NCBI GenBank assembly: GCA_046290225.1
Contig: JBKAGE010000034.1
Location: 343,598 to 407,597, forward strand
Direction: 5' to 3'
DNA length: 64,000 nt
From: Bradymonadia bacterium
GTDB lineage: Bacteria; Myxococcota_A; Bradymonadia; UBA7976; UBA1532
Program-made: the position numbers and the translations under genes
Shown here: in pieces, positions 38,505 through 48,945 of the stretch
How positions within the stretch are numbered: the stretch's first letter is position 1
Layout: each line of letters starts with the position of its first letter
The notes under the pieces: model-generated
Seen by the model: the letters and a program-made list of their open reading frames with translations, nothing else
The model's database searches: none
Told to the model about the DNA's origin: nothing

Positions 38505-39050
38505 ATGGACTTCTACAACAAGAGCTACCGCATCGAGACCATGCTCACCGAGGCCCAGCTCGACGAGCGTATCCAGGCCCTCGGCGCGCAGATCACCGAA
38601 GAGTATCGCGATCGCGGCACGGTGGTGCTCGTGGGGGTGCTCCGGGGCAGCTTCATGTTCATCGCCGATCTGGTCCGGGCCATCGATCTGCCCATCGAGG
38701 TGGATTTCATCGGGGTCTCTTCCTACGGCGACGCTCAGTCCTCCTCTGGCGTGGTCCGGCTCACCCAGGATCTGACCCGCCCCGTGGAAGACAAGCACGT
38801 GCTCCTTGTGGAAGACATCGTCGACACCGGGCTGACCATCGACTACCTCATGGCCAACCTCGCCACCCGTCGACCGGCGTCGATCAAGGTGTGCACCTTG
38901 CTCCACAAGCCCGACAACAAGAAGATCGAGGTGCCGCTCGACTATGTGGGCTTCGAAATCGAGAACAAATTCGTGGTGGGTTATGGCCTCGATCACTCCG
39001 CCAAATTGCGCAACCTCCCCTTCATCGGGGTGGTCACTGGCACGCCCTGA
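38505..39050 (+). CDS. hpt: hypoxanthine-guanine phosphoribosyltransferase
   Basis: PRPP-binding motif VLLVEDIVDTGLT; overall HGPRT pattern; start is 2 nt after the tdk stop. Confidence 0.85.
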   Translation: MDFYNKSYRIETMLTEAQLDERIQALGAQITEEYRDRGTVVLVGVLRGSFMFIADLVRAIDLPIEVDFIGVSSYGDAQSSSGVVRLTQDLTRPVEDKHVLLVEDIVDTGLTIDYLMANLATRRPASIKVCTLLHKPDNKKIEVPLDYVGFEIENKFVVGYGLDHSAKLRNLPFIGVVTGTP

Positions 39051-41259
39051 AGCACGCCTCTGGGTGCTCGCCGCCCTGTTGTGCCTCTCGGGCTGTGGCG
39101 ACAAGCCCGCCAAAAATGGCGCTGACGATGGCCATGCGTCGAAGGATGCTGTGGCGACACCGTCTCCGCAAACGCCCCCTGTCGAGCCCAACCCACCGCC
39201 ACCACCCGATGTAGACTGGCTCGCGGTAAGCCGCGCAGACGACACCTGCGCCGATTGCCATCCTGCCATTGCAGAGTCGTGGGCCAGACAGCCCATGGGG
39301 CGCAGCTGGTCCGTCGTCACCCCGACCAGCGTCGAGGGCGCCCAGCTGCCTGCCACGGTGAGACACCCCATCACGCACGAGACCTTCACCTTGCGTCTCG
39401 AAGGCGGCTCTCTGCTCTTCGAAGATGGCCATGGCCCTCCGCTCGAAGCGGTACAGATCGTCGGCAGCGGCGCCCACACACGCTCGTTCGTCGCCGAAGC
39501 TGATGGCGTCATGCGAATTCTGCCCATCACGGAATATGCCGGGAAAGGCTTCGCCCTCAGCCCCGGATATGAGGTGCCAGATCATCCGGGTGCAAGCCGT
39601 CGCGTCACGGACGATTGTCTCAACTGCCACGCCGACCAATTGCCTGTGGTGAAAGGCACACGGGACCGCTTCGCGTCGATGCCGGCCACCGCCATCGGCT
39701 GCAGTCGCTGCCATGGCGACGCCCGGGCCCATGCCAAGGCACAGACTGATGGTCAGCCCGATCCTGGCGTGCGATCTCCGGCGAAGATGCCCCCTGAGCG
39801 CGCCGCCGATGTCTGTGGTGCGTGCCATCTACAGGGACAGGTGCGGGTGCTGAGGGCGGGCCGTCGCTGGGACCATCATCGACCCGGTGCAGCTCTGAGC
39901 GACACCCTCGCGGTCTTTGACCGCACCCAGAGTGGCGAGGCCTTCAACATCGCCAGCCAGGCAGAGCGTCTGGGTCGAAGCCGCTGCGCCCAGGTGACGG
40001 GGCCCAGCCTCAACTGCACCACATGCCATGCCCCCCACCCTACTGAGGCTCAGCCTGATCGGTCTGCTCCGTGTCGGTCGTGCCATGTAGCCCCTGAGCG
40101 GGCGAAGTGCACCGCACCTGAGGGTCAGCGCGCAGAGGCAGATTGCGCCCAGTGCCACATGCCCAAAGGCAACACGGCTGACGTGATGCACGTGCAGATG
40201 ACAGATCACTTCATCCGCAAGCGCCCTGGTCAGATACCGCCCCCTCCGAAAGATGGCCCGCTCCTCTGGCTCAACCGCCCCAGTGACATCGCAGAGGATT
40301 CGGGGACGGCCCAGAGGCTGCTCGGACGTGCGTATGCCGAAGCGCACAGACTGTATGGCCGGCCCAAGGACCGTGCCCGGGCCCTCGCCGTGCTTCAGAA
40401 ACATCTGCGCCCAGGTGCGGACCCCGACGGCTGGTTCGATCTCGCCTCCATGGCCCGACTCGGGGGTGATCTCGCCGGGGCACGCACGGCCATGACCGAA
40501 GCGCTGAAGCGTGAGACCCCCTCGGCAGATGTCTACGGGGCAGCAGCAGACATCGCCCTCGCCTCGGGCGACGCCACAGGCGCCCTCACCCACCTCGAAG
40601 CGTCGCTGGCCCTGGCACCCCACGACGTCGATCGATGGACCCGCAAGGCCATGGCGCAGCTGGCTCTGGGGCAGCTCGACGCCGCGAAGGCCACCCTTGA
40701 CCACGCACAAACGCTCGACCCGCGCGATCCGACGCCCCTCATCGCCCGAGGGGCCGTGGCCCGCCTGCAGGGCAACCTCACCGAGGCCATCGCCCACTTC
40801 GAGGCCGCTGTGGCGTTGCGGCCAGGGCACGTACAGGGGTGGCTCGATCTCTGCCGGGCCCAGCTCGACGGGCGCGCCGCAGCGGCGACGCGGAACTGTG
40901 CCCGTGGATCAGGCCTCGGCCGTGGCCCTGGAGCCAAGGCGCGCTTCGATGGGGCCTTCGCCCGGGTGAGCCTCAACGAGGGCAACACCCGCAAAGCGAA
41001 GATGTTGGCGCTGAGGACCATGGTGGCCGATCAGTTCAACGCCGACGCCCAGATGGTGGCGGGGGTCCTCGCTGCGGAAGCTGGAGATGTGGCTGCCGGT
41101 CGGCAGGCCCTCGAGAAGGCCGTGTCCATCGATCCGGTCATGGCAGAGGGGTGGTGGCATCTGAGCAAGGTCAGAGCCCAAGGGGGGGACACCGCTGGGG
41201 CGACTCAGGCGAGAGATCGAGCCCTCGCACTGGGCTATCCAGCCACCAGCGAGCCGTAA
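38983..41259 (+). CDS. multiheme c-type cytochrome lipoprotein (7 CxxCH motifs) fused to a C-terminal TPR-repeat domain
   Basis: lipobox LLCLSGC; CADCH, CLNCH, CSRCH, CGACH, CTTCH, CRSCH, CAQCH; TPR-like repeats in the last 300 aa; start codon uncertain (ATG 38983 overlapping hpt, or CTG 39037). Confidence 0.7.
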   Translation: MASITPPNCATSPSSGWSLARPEARLWVLAALLCLSGCGDKPAKNGADDGHASKDAVATPSPQTPPVEPNPPPPPDVDWLAVSRADDTCADCHPAIAESWARQPMGRSWSVVTPTSVEGAQLPATVRHPITHETFTLRLEGGSLLFEDGHGPPLEAVQIVGSGAHTRSFVAEADGVMRILPITEYAGKGFALSPGYEVPDHPGASRRVTDDCLNCHADQLPVVKGTRDRFASMPATAIGCSRCHGDARAHAKAQTDGQPDPGVRSPAKMPPERAADVCGACHLQGQVRVLRAGRRWDHHRPGAALSDTLAVFDRTQSGEAFNIASQAERLGRSRCAQVTGPSLNCTTCHAPHPTEAQPDRSAPCRSCHVAPERAKCTAPEGQRAEADCAQCHMPKGNTADVMHVQMTDHFIRKRPGQIPPPPKDGPLLWLNRPSDIAEDSGTAQRLLGRAYAEAHRLYGRPKDRARALAVLQKHLRPGADPDGWFDLASMARLGGDLAGARTAMTEALKRETPSADVYGAAADIALASGDATGALTHLEASLALAPHDVDRWTRKAMAQLALGQLDAAKATLDHAQTLDPRDPTPLIARGAVARLQGNLTEAIAHFEAAVALRPGHVQGWLDLCRAQLDGRAAAATRNCARGSGLGRGPGAKARFDGAFARVSLNEGNTRKAKMLALRTMVADQFNADAQMVAGVLAAEAGDVAAGRQALEKAVSIDPVMAEGWWHLSKVRAQGGDTAGATQARDRALALGYPATSEP

Positions 41260-43359: not shown

Positions 43360-45174
43360 TTGAGGCCCAGTGGGGTTATCCTCCCGGGGCACTCTGACCG
43401 CCAAAGGCCCCTCTTGAGCCAGCGACCCGTCCCTTTTGGCAAATATCTGCTCCTCGAGCGCATCAGCGTCGGCGGCATGGCCGAGGTCTTCAAGGCCCGT
43501 ACGTTCGGTGTGCAGGGCTTCAGCAAGCTGGTGGCCATCAAGAAGATCCTGCCGCACCTCGCCGAAGATGAGCAGTTCGTCGACATGTTCATCGCCGAAG
43601 CCAAGATGGCGGTGCAGCTCACCCACACCAACATCGCCCAGATCTACGATCTCGGCTGCATCGACAACGATCACTACATCGCCATGGAGTACGTGAGCGG
43701 CCGTGATCTGCTGTCGCTGCACAACCACTTCCGCAAGACCGGCCGCAAGCTGCCTGTAGAGCTGGTGGCCTACATCGGCGCCCGCATCGCCGAGGGCCTC
43801 GATTACGCCCACAACAAGAAGGGTGCCGATGGCCGGCCGATGAACCTCGTGCACCGGGACATCAGCCCCCAGAACGTGCTCATCAGCTACGACGGCGCGG
43901 TGAAGTTGATCGACTTCGGCATCGCCAAGGGCAGCCTGCAAGGTCGCCAGCAGACCCAGGCGGGGGTGCTCAAGGGCAAGTTCGGCTATATGAGCCCCGA
44001 GCTCGTCACCGGCCAGGAGATCGACCACCGCAGCGACATCTTCGCCCTGGGCACGGTGCTCTACGAGCTGCTCACCAGCGAGCGGCTGTTCCTCGGCGAG
44101 TCCGACTTTGCCACTCTGGAACAAATCAAAACCTGCGATATTCCCCCGCCCAGCGTTCGATCCCCTGAGGTGTCCCCGGCCCTCGACGACATCTTGATGA
44201 AGGCCCTCACTCGAGATCCGAACGATCGTTACAGCCGGGCCGCGGAGATGTCCGAGGCCTTTGAGCGGATGCTCCGAGAGGTGGGCCACCATCACCCCAT
44301 GAAGGCCCTCGGGCACTGGATGCAGACCAGCTTTCGCGAAGAGCGGGCCAAAGAGGTCAGCCGCAACGAAGCCTGGATGCGCATGGAGATGTACCCGGAC
44401 GACGAGGAGGAAGAAGAGACCTCGCTCTGGGACGACGCCCCCGACGTCGCCGCCGCAGCCAACCCTGAGAAGCCCACCTGGCTCTCACCAGAGGAAGCGC
44501 CGGCGCCGAACCTGCCCCTCGTGGGGACCCAGGTCGGCGACGATCCCATGGCCCTGCCCAACGCGCCGACCCCCACTCCAGATCCGCCTCCTCGGCCCAT
44601 CACCATCGATCACGCCCCCCGAGGGCAGCGGCGCCTCTTTCTGGTGGCCTCGGCCCTCGTGGTGATGGTGCTCACCGGTGTGGTGGTGGGCTGGCTGGTC
44701 CTCGAGCCCGCCCCCCCCAAGGCAAAGTCGGGGCTGGTGTTGCACATCGAACCCCCCGAAGGGGTCTCGATCTTCGTCGACAACACGCTCGCGGGCGAGG
44801 GCAGTCCATTCATCCAGAAGGGCTGGGCGCCTGGGGCCTACGCCGTGCGGGTAGAGCGCAGCGGGTACACTGCATGGAGGCGTCGATTCCTGCTCAAGCC
44901 CGGGGAGTTCGCCGAAGAGCGTGTGGTGCTCAAGCCCACCGCAGGCCTGCCGGGCAAGATCCGGTTCGTCACCGAGCCTGACGACGCACAGATCCTCATC
45001 GATGGACGACCGCTCCGTATCGATCAACGGTATGGATATGTGAGCCTCGACAGCAGCCACCCCAGCACCATCGAGATCAGAAAAACAGGCTACCTGCCCT
45101 ACCGGGAGCAGCTCACACCAGAGCCTGGGGGCAAACAGACCCGAACCTTCAGGCTCGAGCCCGCTCAGCCCTGA
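43360..45174 (+). CDS. serine/threonine protein kinase with Pro-rich linker, TM helix and C-terminal PEGA-like extracellular domain
   Basis: GGMAEVFKA, AIKKILP, HRDISPQNVLI, DFGIAKG, SPE; TM LFLVASALVVMVLTGVVVGWLVL; PEGVSIFVDN...; TTG start (alternative TTG at 43414). Confidence 0.85.
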   Translation: MRPSGVILPGHSDRQRPLLSQRPVPFGKYLLLERISVGGMAEVFKARTFGVQGFSKLVAIKKILPHLAEDEQFVDMFIAEAKMAVQLTHTNIAQIYDLGCIDNDHYIAMEYVSGRDLLSLHNHFRKTGRKLPVELVAYIGARIAEGLDYAHNKKGADGRPMNLVHRDISPQNVLISYDGAVKLIDFGIAKGSLQGRQQTQAGVLKGKFGYMSPELVTGQEIDHRSDIFALGTVLYELLTSERLFLGESDFATLEQIKTCDIPPPSVRSPEVSPALDDILMKALTRDPNDRYSRAAEMSEAFERMLREVGHHHPMKALGHWMQTSFREERAKEVSRNEAWMRMEMYPDDEEEEETSLWDDAPDVAAAANPEKPTWLSPEEAPAPNLPLVGTQVGDDPMALPNAPTPTPDPPPRPITIDHAPRGQRRLFLVASALVVMVLTGVVVGWLVLEPAPPKAKSGLVLHIEPPEGVSIFVDNTLAGEGSPFIQKGWAPGAYAVRVERSGYTAWRRRFLLKPGEFAEERVVLKPTAGLPGKIRFVTEPDDAQILIDGRPLRIDQRYGYVSLDSSHPSTIEIRKTGYLPYREQLTPEPGGKQTRTFRLEPAQP

Positions 45175-46283
45175 TCGTCGTCCGCGCCGCCCTTGAGCCG
45201 CTGAGCCACGCGCACGCGCTGACGGGCCTTGTAGAGATCGTGACGGTTCTCACCGGCTTCGTTCGCCGCCGCCGTGGCCTGATCACACAGCTGAAACTCC
45301 ACCAACATGAAGACCACCACCCCGTGCTCGGGGTTCACCGGCACGTTGTAGCGCGCGAGCAGATCATCCACTCGGATCGGCAGGTCGACGACGAAGTTGA
45401 TGATCTTGAAGGAGTGCCCGCTGAAGTGGTTCACCGGCGCCGCCGTCGCCGAGCGGGGCAGCGGGCCCTGAGCTTCGGGGAACTGCATCACCTTGAGGAA
45501 CCGCTTCATCTGCGGATCGGCGGCGATGGTCCGGTGCAGGTCGATGAGGCCATTTCGAGAGGCCCCAGGCACCACATAGTTGAAGGGGAACAGCTCGGTG
45601 CTCAAGTAGACCAGGGCTTCGAAGAGATCGTCGAGGCTGTCGGTGATCACCCTGAACCGGATGCGATCGTGCAGCTGCACCGCGTGGCTCTCGGACTGCA
45701 CGAGCAGCTTGGTGATCATCGAGTCTACGGTCTTGCGACTGCCGGCGAACTCGGCGACCCGCACACCTCGGGCCTTGAGGCCGTCGAGGGCGGTGAAGAC
45801 CTTGTTCTCGATGCGTTGGTACAGCTCTGCAGCGGAGACTGGCAGGGTGAACAACAGCTCCCTGCCCTGCAGATGATGGAACACGTGCATGACCTTGAGG
45901 ATCCGGCACGCCTGCCTCTGGGCAGGGCTGTCCGGGCCGCTGGCCATCAAAAACAGGCCCTTGACGTTCTCCAGCTGGGTGAGAGCCGCGGTGAGATCGA
46001 ACTCGAAGTAGCGATCGAGGTACTCGACGGCCTGGGTAAAGATGTGGCCCACCCGCTGTTGATCGATGGGATCACCCGGGTCGAACCCCTGCAGTCTCAG
46101 CAAGCGGTCCACCTCGGCCTCGCTGCGCAGCGAAAGCCGGCGCCAGTCCACCACGGAGTTGCCTTCGAGGAGCAATCTGAGTTGCTCGAGCTCTTGTAAC
46201 CCGGTGCTCAAGAGGCCATGCTCTTCGAAGCTCGCGTTCAGGTGCACTTCGAAATCTGCGGGGCCCTCTTCAACCTGGGTCAT
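45165..46283 (-). CDS. RelA/SpoT (nucleotidyltransferase, alarmone-synthetase-like) domain protein with an unknown ~170-aa N-terminal domain
   Basis: motifs aligned with small alarmone synthetases: GSRKTVDSMITKL (G-R-x-K), DRIRFRVIT (D..G.R.I), SGHSFKIINFVV (SGYRS.H), VVFMLVEFQLCD...HDLYK (EIQIRT...YK); RT is replaced by CD. Confidence 0.55.
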   Translation of the reverse strand: MTQVEEGPADFEVHLNASFEEHGLLSTGLQELEQLRLLLEGNSVVDWRRLSLRSEAEVDRLLRLQGFDPGDPIDQQRVGHIFTQAVEYLDRYFEFDLTAALTQLENVKGLFLMASGPDSPAQRQACRILKVMHVFHHLQGRELLFTLPVSAAELYQRIENKVFTALDGLKARGVRVAEFAGSRKTVDSMITKLLVQSESHAVQLHDRIRFRVITDSLDDLFEALVYLSTELFPFNYVVPGASRNGLIDLHRTIAADPQMKRFLKVMQFPEAQGPLPRSATAAPVNHFSGHSFKIINFVVDLPIRVDDLLARYNVPVNPEHGVVVFMLVEFQLCDQATAAANEAGENRHDLYKARQRVRVAQRLKGGADDDQG

Positions 46284-46342
46284 CGTTCACTCGCGCTGTG
46301 GGGACTGGGAAGGCGTTAACCTCGACCACAACGCCAGGAATT

Positions 46343-46501
46343 TCAACCCCTGGAAGTTCCGCGGTCGATGCCCAGTGTACCACCGAGCAGAGCAACGCTG
46401 GTGGCCATGATGGCCAGGTTGCCCAGAACGATGGCAGCGGGGGTGCCCGCGACGACGGCGGTGAGTGCCCCTGCCCCACCGAAAATGGCCAATGCCTTCA
46501 T
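46343..46501 (-). CDS. unannotated 52-aa Gly/Ala-rich hydrophobic membrane peptide (not in the ORF track, which has a 60-aa cut-off)
   Basis: AGGAGG RBS 6 nt upstream of ATG; translation MKALAIFGGAGALTAVVAGTPAAIVLGNLAIMATSVALLGGTLGIDRGTSRG; 60 nt upstream of, and co-oriented with, the RelA/SpoT-domain gene. Confidence 0.5.
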   Translation of the reverse strand: MKALAIFGGAGALTAVVAGTPAAIVLGNLAIMATSVALLGGTLGIDRGTSRG

Positions 46502-46630
46502 GTTTGCCCTCCTGAAAACGACTTACACCTACAACAGAACACCTGAAACCACCTTGTCCCCTTATGGTGCGGGCGTCAAAAAAATCGCCGACCCCTTGGA
46601 ACGACGTGTGTGTTCGCCGAGAGCCCTTTG

Positions 46631-47935
46631 ATGTCGCAGATTCTCACCGAGCCCCCCTGGGCCACCCGCGCCCTGAGCAATGGACTCACTGCCGTGGCGG
46701 TACAGCGCCCTGGCGCCCGCAGCGCCCACTTGAACGTGGCGGTCCGTCTGGGGGTGCGCTTCGAAGCTCCAGAAGACAACGGACTGTCGCACTTTCTCGA
46801 GCACGCCTTGTTCCTGGGCTGTGAGGGCTACCCGAACGCCGACGCGGTGAACGAGGCCGCGGAGCGGATGGGGGAAGTCATCGAGGCGTCCACAGGCCGT
46901 GACACAGTGCAGTTCGAGCACACTCTGGCCCCAAGCCGACTGAGGGCGGGGCTCGATCTCATGGCGGCCATGCTCACGGCGCCCCGGTTCGAAGGCCTCG
47001 AGCCCGAGCGGGCCATCATCCTCGAAGAAGCCCTGGACGAGCTCGACGATCGTGGTCGGCTCATCGACGCCGACACGCTGTCACGCATGGATCTCTGGCC
47101 AGGGATCTCCATGGGCCAGCGCATCATCGGCCCGGAGTCGAACATCGAGCGCTTCGATCTCGATGATCTCCACCGGATGCATCGCCGCCACTTCCAGGGG
47201 CCGAACATGGTGGTGACTGTGGTGGCCGACGCGGATCCGCAGATCCTGCTCGACGACATCGAGGCGGCCTTCTCGAAATTGCCCGGCGGCGACGCCCGCG
47301 CGCTCACGCCTCTGCCCGAATTCGCCGCGGGTCCCCTCCTCCGTCAGGTCCCGGACAGTGGTAGCCAAGTGGAATGCCGCCTGGCCTTTCGCACCCCAGG
47401 CTTTAGACACCCCGACGCGCCGATCATCGACATGATCAAGCGCATCCTCGATGACGGCATGGCAAGTCGGATCCAGAGGCGTCTGGGCAATGACCTGGGC
47501 CTGGCGTACGACCAGTGGGCCGCCTGGGATCGATACCCTGACACCGGGGCCTTCGAGATCGGCGCCACGGTGAGCCCGGGCAAGGCGATCACCCTCGTGA
47601 AGGAAGCTTACGCCCTGCTGGAGGGCCTCGTGACTGATCCACCCGACGATGCCGAGCTGTCACGGGTGCGGTTCAGAGCCCAGTGGGCGGCGGAGACCGG
47701 CGGTGAGCACGGGGAAGTCCTCGCAGCGCGGTACGGCACTCGACGTCTCTACTGGCCCGACGCCCGGCCAGTGGCCGAGCGCCTCGCGGCTCAACTCGAT
47801 GTCAGTGCCGAAGACATCGCCCGGGTGGCGGCTTCGCTCTTTCAGGGCAAAAACCACGTGGCCTGTGTGGTGGGCGATCTGAGCCGCCCCGCTGGGCGCA
47901 CGCTCGAACGCACGGTGGCCGCCTTTGGCCGCTGA
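46631..47935 (+). CDS. M16-family zinc peptidase (pitrilysin/insulinase-like)
   Basis: inverted zinc motif HFLEH ... E; overall M16 two-domain length; start ATG 46631 (a GTG at 46610 is also possible). Confidence 0.75.
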   Translation: MSQILTEPPWATRALSNGLTAVAVQRPGARSAHLNVAVRLGVRFEAPEDNGLSHFLEHALFLGCEGYPNADAVNEAAERMGEVIEASTGRDTVQFEHTLAPSRLRAGLDLMAAMLTAPRFEGLEPERAIILEEALDELDDRGRLIDADTLSRMDLWPGISMGQRIIGPESNIERFDLDDLHRMHRRHFQGPNMVVTVVADADPQILLDDIEAAFSKLPGGDARALTPLPEFAAGPLLRQVPDSGSQVECRLAFRTPGFRHPDAPIIDMIKRILDDGMASRIQRRLGNDLGLAYDQWAAWDRYPDTGAFEIGATVSPGKAITLVKEAYALLEGLVTDPPDDAELSRVRFRAQWAAETGGEHGEVLAARYGTRRLYWPDARPVAERLAAQLDVSAEDIARVAASLFQGKNHVACVVGDLSRPAGRTLERTVAAFGR

Positions 47936-48099: not shown

Positions 48100-48945
48100 A
48101 TGCACCACTTCACCCTGCTCACCACCCGCACCTGCCTCATCGCTCTGTTGGCCTCTCTGACCCTCACGGGCTGCCCCACGGGTGACGATGGTCCTGCTCC
48201 GGAGGACCAGGCTGACATGTCTGGTGAAACAGGGGGCGCCGAAGCGCCCTCTGAGAACCCTGACGGTCGAGCACCTGCAGACGGCCTCGACGAAGCCCCT
48301 GCTCAGAGCGAAGTCGACGTTCTCGACCCAGAGGGGATCTCCGCCGATGACCTCACGAGGCCCGGCCCTGAAGAGGAAAGCCCTGAAGAAGAGAGTCCTG
48401 ACGTCGAAGCTGATCCTGAAGAAGGTCCTCAAGCAAGCGAGACTCCAGAACGCGACCCTCAGGCAGGGACGCCGCGGGAGGAAGTCGATCCCCTGGCCTG
48501 TGATCAGGCCTGTGCCGACGAAGCTCAGGCGTACTACACCGACTGCATCGGCTGGGGCTTCTCAGAAGAGGTCTGCAGCGCCCGGGCTGGCTCCATGGCT
48601 CGACAGTGCATCGTCGATCAATGTCGGGACGACGAAGAGGTAGAGGAGACGCCCGAAGAAGCTGATTACGAGGCCTGTATGGATCGCTGCACTGACCGAG
48701 GCGGCTCTGCCCGCCAGTGCCATGAGATTTGCACCGAGCCTTTGGAGCGCGAGATGGCCGACCCTCGCGAAGACGAGGAGGACGGCCCCACCTGCGCCGA
48801 GACCTGTGAGGCCGAGGCCCTCGAGGTCTACGAGGCCTGTATGGATCGCCACGATGACGAGCAGGGTTGTCGGGATCGCGCTCGGCGGACTCAGCAGCGA
48901 TGCGTCGCCGAAGAGTGCACTGAGCGGGTGATCATCGCCGAGTGA
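48100..48945 (+). CDS. acidic Cys-rich lipoprotein, function unknown
   Basis: lipobox LTLTGC; about 35% Asp/Glu; repeated C-x-D/E-x-C-x...C pattern in the C-terminal half. Confidence 0.55.
   Translation: MHHFTLLTTRTCLIALLASLTLTGCPTGDDGPAPEDQADMSGETGGAEAPSENPDGRAPADGLDEAPAQSEVDVLDPEGISADDLTRPGPEEESPEEESPDVEADPEEGPQASETPERDPQAGTPREEVDPLACDQACADEAQAYYTDCIGWGFSEEVCSARAGSMARQCIVDQCRDDEEVEETPEEADYEACMDRCTDRGGSARQCHEICTEPLEREMADPREDEEDGPTCAETCEAEALEVYEACMDRHDDEQGCRDRARRTQQRCVAEECTERVIIAE

Follow-up and report, generated by a model that had tools for sequence, protein, structure and literature searches.

RelA/SpoT homologue (RSH) enzymes are central to bacterial stress signalling, and small stand-alone relatives have lately been found that make new alarmones or modify tRNA. 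The described systems closest to the gene considered here are the small alarmone synthetases (SAS) RelQ/SAS1 (YjbM, 5dec) and RelP/SAS2 (YwaC, 6fgk; 6ewz), the long RSH enzymes Rel, RelA and SpoT, the toxic toxSAS and CapRel proteins (FaRel2, PhRel, CapRel 7ztb, Tas1 6ox6), and the synthetase SaSAS of Streptomyces albidoflavus (8vx3). We analysed a 64,000-nucleotide stretch (hereafter the window) of contig JBKAGE010000034.1, part of a metagenome-assembled genome (MAG) of a Bradymonadia bacterium. It carries a gene for a 372-aa protein of the uncharacterised family TIGR04552, preceded by a small gene for a 52-aa membrane micropeptide. The C-terminal half of the 372-aa protein is a very diverged RSH synthetase-type domain in which the catalytic core is kept. 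Taking all observations together, the gene probably encodes a diverged RSH-type pyrophosphokinase with a purine-nucleotide-like acceptor and a regulatory role linked to the cell envelope or motility, a composite reading that we hold with some reserve.

The 372-aa protein resembles RelQ/SAS1 and RelP/SAS2 in the order and spacing of its motifs (K-x3-S-x3-K, D-x4-R, aromatic-x4-[H/N], E-x-Q and H-x-x-Y-K). It differs from them in being only 14-17% identical and below the Pfam RelA_SpoT threshold, in its additional N-terminal helical region of ~150 residues and internal insertion of ~45 residues, and in three family-wide substitutions: Ser or Asn for the Arg of GRxK, Asn for the His of GYxSxH, and x-Asp for the Arg-Thr that closes EIQIRT. 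A helical N-terminal region also precedes the synthetase domain in the long RSH enzymes, and Foldseek alignments to Rel N-terminal fragments extend over 350-410 columns. Unlike the long enzymes, the window protein ends soon after the synthetase core, with no TGS or ACT region, and it does not have the HD plus TGS/ACT architecture. In contrast to toxSAS and CapRel proteins, it has neither an antitoxin-type neighbour nor a C-terminal sensor or antitoxin domain. SaSAS is short and exported, whereas the window protein lacks both a signal peptide and a transmembrane segment and has the additional N-terminal domain. Set against these characterised systems, it represents a new variation on the RSH synthetase theme.

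The C-terminal half is an RSH synthetase-type domain

The sequence likeness to RSH synthetases is weak at the level of single proteins and becomes clear with profiles. The only Pfam match of the 372-aa protein is RelA_SpoT (PF04607), at 14.6 bits and E 0.04 over residues 184-229. This falls below the gathering threshold of 27 bits and covers only the N-terminal half of the model, so that a profile check proposed in a first-pass annotation of this DNA returned the expected family as sole match but not at a qualifying score. The same Pfam model is matched in 30 of 32 relatives (best E 4.2e-4), with every other family found in at most two of them, and one distant TIGR04552 member spans the whole model (E 4.5e-4, 20.9 bits). 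A search of PDB sequences with the single protein gave only noise, and a full-length profile built from the 32 sequences had no PDB match at E <=10. When the profile was limited to the C-terminal half and compared with 177,635 distinct PDB sequences, four matches were obtained at E <=10. All four are GTP pyrophosphokinases, namely YwaC (E 0.057) and three chains of E. coli RelA, and all are weak. Direct alignment of this profile to residues 191-400 of E. coli RelA with hhalign gave E 3.2e-4 over 133 columns that cover all the motifs.

The predicted structure agrees with these alignments. The AlphaFold model of the 372-aa protein has a mean predicted local distance difference test score (pLDDT) of 82 and a predicted template modelling score (pTM) of 0.81, and it is most like solved RSH synthetase domains, with all of the best 50 Foldseek matches listed from the PDB being RSH proteins. 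The earlier proposal of a RelA/SpoT-type synthetase-like domain behind an unrecognised N-terminal domain is thus upheld by the sub-threshold Pfam matches, the PDB profile search and the hhalign alignments.

The N-terminal domain begins with a disordered segment (residues 1-27 of the AlphaFold model), which is followed by seven helices across residues 28-171. The last two of these helices (120-171) are probably part of the synthetase core, as in SAS enzymes. The remainder matches no solved fold and has no recognisable counterpart. It is nonetheless well marked by invariant residues, which include E33, R36, G41, S43, D46, W47, D74 and Y88 and the block M132-H133-x-x-H136-H137-x-x-x-R141.

Catalytic residues are retained in a modified motif context

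Conservation was counted over 193 distinct relatives that are only 40-50% identical overall, with residues numbered as in the window protein and placed against E. coli RelA (Table 1). The equivalents of the Mg-coordinating Asp, the Glu of E-x-Q and the acceptor-stacking aromatic residue are all present; the roles of the Asp in Mg binding and of the Tyr in acceptor stacking have been described for SAS enzymes (bioRxiv 10.1101/2021.04.30.441581). Because the active-site equivalents are fully conserved across a family whose members share 40-55% identity, the protein is probably a working enzyme.

Around these residues the motifs have drifted. The first-pass annotation had listed G-R-x-K, D..G.R.I and SG.RS.H as recognisable SAS motifs; the likeness is real in substance, but none of the three occurs literally. 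The counterpart of G-R-x-K is G-S-R-K, with S182 at the Arg position (S in 129, N in 52 and G in 12 of the 193 relatives). The canonical GRxK Arg is missing, and the neighbouring R183 occurs in only 120 of the 193. D..G.R.I appears as D-R-I-R-F-R-V-I, in which the Gly is replaced by an invariant Arg, R209. The equivalent of G-Y-x-S-x-H is S-F-K-I-I-N, for which the family form is G-[FY]-[RK]-x-[IL]-N. The proposed correspondence of EIQIRT...YK to EFQLCD...HDLYK holds well, as the distance from Glu to His is 19 residues, the same as in E. coli RelA. A change of Arg-Thr to Cys-Asp within this block had also been pointed out, and here only the second half is a family trait: D334 occupies the Thr position and is invariant, but the Cys is not fixed, since the first position varies among V, L, M, I and C. 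Further invariant residues specific to the family are D300, N285, N341 and G344. The family-specific insertion sits between the DY..P motif and the acceptor strand, where hhalign leaves it unaligned to RelA, and pLDDT drops below 50 at residues 270-280 within it.

TIGR04552 is a conserved chromosomal family of Myxococcota

The 372-aa protein is 100% identical to MFN3198002.1, the NCBI entry from the Bradymonadia MAG, where it lies on a 613-kb contig. It matches NCBIfam TIGR04552 over profile positions 2-351 of 352 (314 bits against a cut-off of 125, E 1.4e-93) and the sister model TIGR04562 over positions 2-355 of 356 (293 bits, cut-off 140). Both models were also matched by all ten relatives sampled. 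A word-index search returned more than 1300 homologues, among which the entries that name an organism belong to Bradymonadia, Myxococcales/Myxococcota and Anaeromyxobacter. When all 1.84 billion cluster representatives at 50% identity were scanned, 1032 members were obtained at E <=1e-3, of which nearly all full-length ones are 340-400 aa. Compared with this TIGR04552/TIGR04562 family, MXAN_4858 of Myxococcus xanthus included, the window protein is a plain full-length member with no distinguishing feature. From its hydropathy it is predicted to be soluble, without a transmembrane segment or signal peptide, and its isoelectric point (pI) is 5.7. The window has a G+C content of 64% and no second TIGR04552 member was found in it.

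The annotation had also set a check for membership of a well-characterised housekeeping family, and the protein falls instead in an uncharacterised one. In the papers found, TIGR04552 is named only in passing, one of them including a Bdellovibrio member in its list of genes with mutations. No RSH subgroup is defined for TIGR04552 by Atkinson et al. 2011 (PMC3153485). Their supplement has one 'SYNTH[S]' protein without a class for M. xanthus (YP_633016.1) and another for Sorangium, and none for Anaeromyxobacter, Haliangium or Bdellovibrio. Judged from accession order, YP_633016.1 is probably MXAN_4858, which we could not confirm. These taxa go unmentioned in the text of the 2020 toxSAS survey (PMC7229694). 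Genes of this uncharacterised family belong to the conserved chromosomal set of Myxococcota, with a member reported from Bdellovibrio as well, and are very probably not mobile toxins.

A membrane micropeptide precedes the enzyme gene in many lineages

A small open reading frame (ORF) with a strong ribosome-binding site had been noted upstream of the enzyme gene on the same strand, and the Shine-Dalgarno sequence and spacer given in Table 1 bear this out. It had been called unannotated, which is incorrect: GenBank lists its product as MFN3198003.1, under the label 'hypothetical protein ACE366_06255', on the same MAG contig as MFN3198002.1. A scan of positions 44900-46800 returned no promoter-like and no terminator-like sites. 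Because no such site lies between the two genes, they are likely to be co-transcribed. An Rfam scan around the locus gave sub-threshold chance matches only.

Conservation of the small ORF in orthologous loci had been proposed as a check. We compared 80 non-redundant related loci from GTDB species genomes, and searched small ORFs (3942 in 84 loci) with a peptide hidden Markov model (HMM) and jackhmmer. All 48 matches lie directly upstream of a TIGR04552 gene and on the same strand. Expressed by locus, the micropeptide is found directly upstream in ~47 of the 80, as 42 distinct sequences, and is absent from about one third of the loci. In the two closest relatives, whose enzymes are 74% and 54% identical to the window protein, a 48- to 50-aa ORF had already been gene-called at the equivalent place, and its products are 67% and 52% identical to the window micropeptide. 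A word-index search with the micropeptide found three proteins only, as it lacks the sensitivity needed for a hydrophobic query of 52 aa, and it was the comparison of loci that proved informative. The micropeptide belongs to no Pfam or NCBIfam family.

The micropeptide had been described as a Gly/Ala-rich peptide of two membrane helices. The window peptide is indeed hydrophobic over residues 1-45, but the conserved core is a single transmembrane helix, [IV][IV]G[NS]L...LF..T[LIV].L[GE][RK], followed by basic residues. The extra Gly/Ala-rich hydrophobic segment ahead of the core helix is a property of the Bradymonadia type, to which the window peptide belongs. Micropeptides of Polyangium, Polyangiales and Sandaracinaceae carry a lipobox Cys (AIGC, LAGC, LMGC) just ahead of the conserved helix. 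By the positive-inside rule, the micropeptide would have its N-terminus in the periplasm and a short C-terminal tail in the cytoplasm. Many micropeptides of Polyangia are only 26-34 aa long, and in MAGs of this group ORFs of that size are easily overlooked in annotation. In Polyangium jinanense, a TIGR04552 gene is found on two separate contigs of one genome (L072 and L073), both times behind the same micropeptide sequence, which could reflect a duplication or a redundancy in the assembly. We also considered whether the micropeptide could be a relic or homologue of the membrane segment of GltJ and rejected this, as the peptide HMM has no match in GltJ or in other large ORFs of the loci.

Gene neighbourhood and adjacency to gltJ

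In the window the gene pair is adjoined by an M16 peptidase gene and by a convergent gene for a Ser/Thr kinase with a PEGA domain, and the 3' ends of the kinase and TIGR04552 genes overlap by 10 nt (45165-45174). A TPR-glycosyltransferase gene and a MoaD/MoaE fusion gene lie nearby. This order (M16 peptidase, Ser/Thr kinase-PEGA, MoaD/E) recurs in relatives whose proteins are 54-74% identical. A homologous convergent kinase is found downstream in at least 23 of the 80 loci, across clades that differ in their upstream neighbours. No mobile-element genes were seen at the locus. The neighbouring kinase matches the PADLOC models for PD-T4-6, which we read as a match to a generic Ser/Thr kinase domain and not as a defence system.

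A second arrangement characterises Anaeromyxobacter-type loci. In ~21-24 of the 80 loci, the place immediately upstream of the TIGR04552 gene is taken by gltJ, in the same orientation; its product is an adventurous gliding motility protein (NCBIfam NF033761; Zn-ribbon and GYF domains). None of these loci has the micropeptide, and the two arrangements never coincide among the 80. In Anaeromyxobacter oryzae the order is a gene for a 4125-aa TPR protein, gltJ, the TIGR04552 gene and a 60-aa CxxC...CxxC ORF. The last of these is found just downstream in seven more Anaeromyxobacter-type loci (L026, L029, L030, L033, L047, L060 and L074) and is absent from the window. In M. xanthus, transposon insertions in MXAN_4858 are viable and show developmental fitness patterns like those of glt genes (bioRxiv 10.64898/2026.08.28.747804).

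Two other genes of the window drew our attention on their own account. Positions 48100-48945 (+) encode a 281-aa, very acidic and Cys-rich predicted lipoprotein with an LTLTGC lipobox, repeated Cys-containing acidic segments and no Pfam match. Positions 38944-41259 (+) encode a 771-aa protein with a cytochrome c7/c3-like multihaem region and C-terminal TPR repeats.

Table 1. Coordinates of the locus and residue counterparts in E. coli RelA. Positions are those of the window unless preceded by an L-number, which denotes one of the related loci; conservation is out of 193 relatives.
Feature	Position	Strand	Counterpart or source	Conservation or remark
372-aa TIGR04552 family protein	45165..46283	(-)	ORF call; GenBank MFN3198002.1	
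N-terminal part, residues 1-147	45843..46283	(-)		
RSH SYNTH-like nucleotidyltransferase-fold domain, residues ~148-364	45192..45842	(-)		
K184			RelA K254	invariant
S188			RelA S258	S in 188/193
K192			RelA K262	invariant
D206 (codon GAT)	45666..45668	(-)	RelA D275 (Mg-coordinating Asp)	invariant, 193/193
R211			RelA R280	R in 192/193
Y236 / P239			RelA Y310 / P314	Y in 183/193; P invariant
Insertion, residues ~246-290 (~45 residues)	45414..45548	(-)		two short helices and a low-confidence loop
F292-K-I-I-N296, counterpart of acceptor-binding Y-x-S-x-H	45396..45410	(-)	aligned to YwaC NGYRSLH, RelA NGYQSIH	
F292			RelA Y319 (acceptor-stacking aromatic)	F 110, Y 83 of 193
N296			RelA H323	N 181, H 12 of 193
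E329-F-Q-L-C-D334, counterpart of RSH E-[IV]-Q-I-R-T	45282..45299	(-)	aligned to RelA VEIQIRT	
E329 / Q331			RelA E335 / Q337	both invariant, 193/193
H348, Y351, K352			RelA H354, Y357, K358	H and Y invariant; K in 189/193
Spacer from micropeptide to TIGR04552 gene	46284..46342	(-)		59 nt
52-aa hydrophobic micropeptide	46343..46501	(-)	ORF call; GenBank MFN3198003.1	
AGGAGG Shine-Dalgarno	46508..46513	(-)	sequence read	6 nt ahead of micropeptide ATG
Ser/Thr kinase with PEGA domain	43360-45174	(+)		convergent
M16 peptidase	46610-47935			divergent; adjoins the pair
Lipobox-type micropeptides	L067, L072, L073, L076-L080, L082-L084			~100-450 nt upstream of TIGR04552 gene
gltJ upstream of TIGR04552 gene	L021, L024, ~20 other Anaeromyxobacter-type loci; L087:8005-11113			
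~60-aa acidic CxxC...CxxC ORF (zinc-ribbon-like)	L087:11110-11292			overlaps TIGR04552 gene end by 4 nt, A. oryzae

Alternative readings of the locus

The principal competitor to a pyrophosphokinase is a different chemistry on the same fold, and the scaffold and toxin readings discussed below are less likely still. In such a case the RSH likeness would reflect ancestry only, and the protein would be a nucleotidyltransferase-fold enzyme without pyrophosphoryl transfer, for example one that nucleotidylates a protein, a lipid, RNA or a small molecule with the help of the invariant carboxylates D300 and D334 in the manner of Pol-beta-type nucleotidyltransferases. These two acids are not found in RelA, the canonical Arg of GRxK is missing, and the Gly-Ser ahead of the first Lys recalls the hG[GS] motif of Pol-beta nucleotidyltransferases. 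However, the first carboxylate motif lacks a D-x-D pair, the motifs that are present are those of RSH enzymes at RSH spacing (K-x3-S-x3-K, D-x4-R, G-[FY]-x-x-x-[NH], E-x-Q and H-x-x-Y-K), and the PDB sequence matches are all RSH synthetases. On this balance we regard another chemistry as unlikely. A non-catalytic scaffold or pseudoenzyme, in which an RSH-derived fold serves to bind either a nucleotide or a partner (GltJ, the kinase or the micropeptide, for example), would fit the strong divergence from RSH proteins and the sub-threshold Pfam scores, and pseudo-enzymatic domains do exist in the RSH superfamily, the inactive hydrolase domain of RelA being an example (PMC3153485). The equivalents of catalytic and substrate-binding residues are nonetheless invariant in the 193 relatives, which is the pattern of an active site under selection, and makes a scaffold quite improbable.

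The first-pass annotation had suggested either a sensor-SYNTH signalling module, which is plausible, or a toxin or defence module. The latter would be a toxSAS toxin or CapRel-like phage defence protein, with the small upstream ORF as antitoxin or trigger partner, and a stand-alone RSH-like domain beside a small co-oriented gene would have that appearance. The toxin or defence reading is unsupported because the synteny is conserved and housekeeping-like, with core-genome genes and no mobile-element genes, and because PADLOC has no match for either the enzyme or the micropeptide. The family is lineage-wide and the window holds a single copy. The protein is acidic, whereas tRNA-modifying toxSAS need a basic patch, and it stops ~20 residues past H-x-x-Y-K, so that there is no CapRel-type or antitoxin-like C-terminal domain. 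Its partner is a transmembrane helix of 26-52 aa that belongs to no known antitoxin family and is absent from about a third of the loci, and the M. xanthus insertion mutants survive. We therefore consider a toxin or defence function very improbable.

Several points also weigh against the pyrophosphokinase reading that we prefer. No TIGR04552 sequence checked reaches the Pfam RelA_SpoT gathering score, and we found no biochemical characterisation of any TIGR04552 member in the literature. With the GRxK Arg lost and the extra invariant acids D300 and D334 gained, the chemistry or the substrate may differ from that of RSH enzymes. Gene order is all that connects the enzyme with the micropeptide, GltJ and the envelope, and an earlier MXAN_4858 insertion in M. 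xanthus reportedly caused no overt motility defect (bioRxiv 10.64898/2026.08.28.747804).

Proposed mechanism and implications

In the pyrophosphokinase model, the 372-aa protein would act as a soluble cytoplasmic enzyme whose RSH-like C-terminal half binds ATP-Mg. The acceptor, a purine nucleotide-like molecule stacking on Phe/Tyr292, would receive pyrophosphate from ATP at its 3'-OH, and an alarmone-like product would result. The choice of substrate and the regulation of the enzyme are probably altered by the N-terminal helical domain with its M-H-x-x-H-H-x-x-x-R block and by the ~45-residue insertion. The same probably holds for the invariant Asp at the Thr position of EIQIRT, for the Asn that replaces the His of GYxSxH, and for the Ser or Asn found where GRxK has its Arg. 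The enzyme gene is probably expressed from one transcript with the gene for the conserved single-pass membrane micropeptide. The arrangement differs in Anaeromyxobacter-type genomes, where the enzyme gene stands behind gltJ at the end of the gliding-motility G1 cluster. From the micropeptide partner and the adjacency to gltJ we infer a regulatory role tied to the cell envelope or the motility machinery. A more specific proposal, which we offer as possible though rather doubtful, is that TIGR04552 forms a distinct, so far unclassified branch of RSH proteins that makes a signal other than guanosine tetra- or pentaphosphate ((p)ppGpp) or modifies a substrate, and that is wired to the envelope through the micropeptide in Bradymonadia, Polyangia and Nannocystia and through GltJ in Myxococcia.

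TIGR04552 is conserved across predatory and gliding Myxococcota and keeps the RSH core, yet it is missed by the Pfam RelA_SpoT threshold. Its partner represents a family of conserved membrane microproteins of 26-52 aa whose shortest members easily escape annotation. The adjacency to gltJ and the fitness data from M. xanthus provide a direct experimental handle on the family. If active, TIGR04552 enzymes would bring an uncharted nucleotide signal into bacteria noted for their development, predation and gliding, and if they do form a distinct envelope-wired RSH branch, myxobacterial motility or envelope physiology would have in that signal a new second-messenger input.

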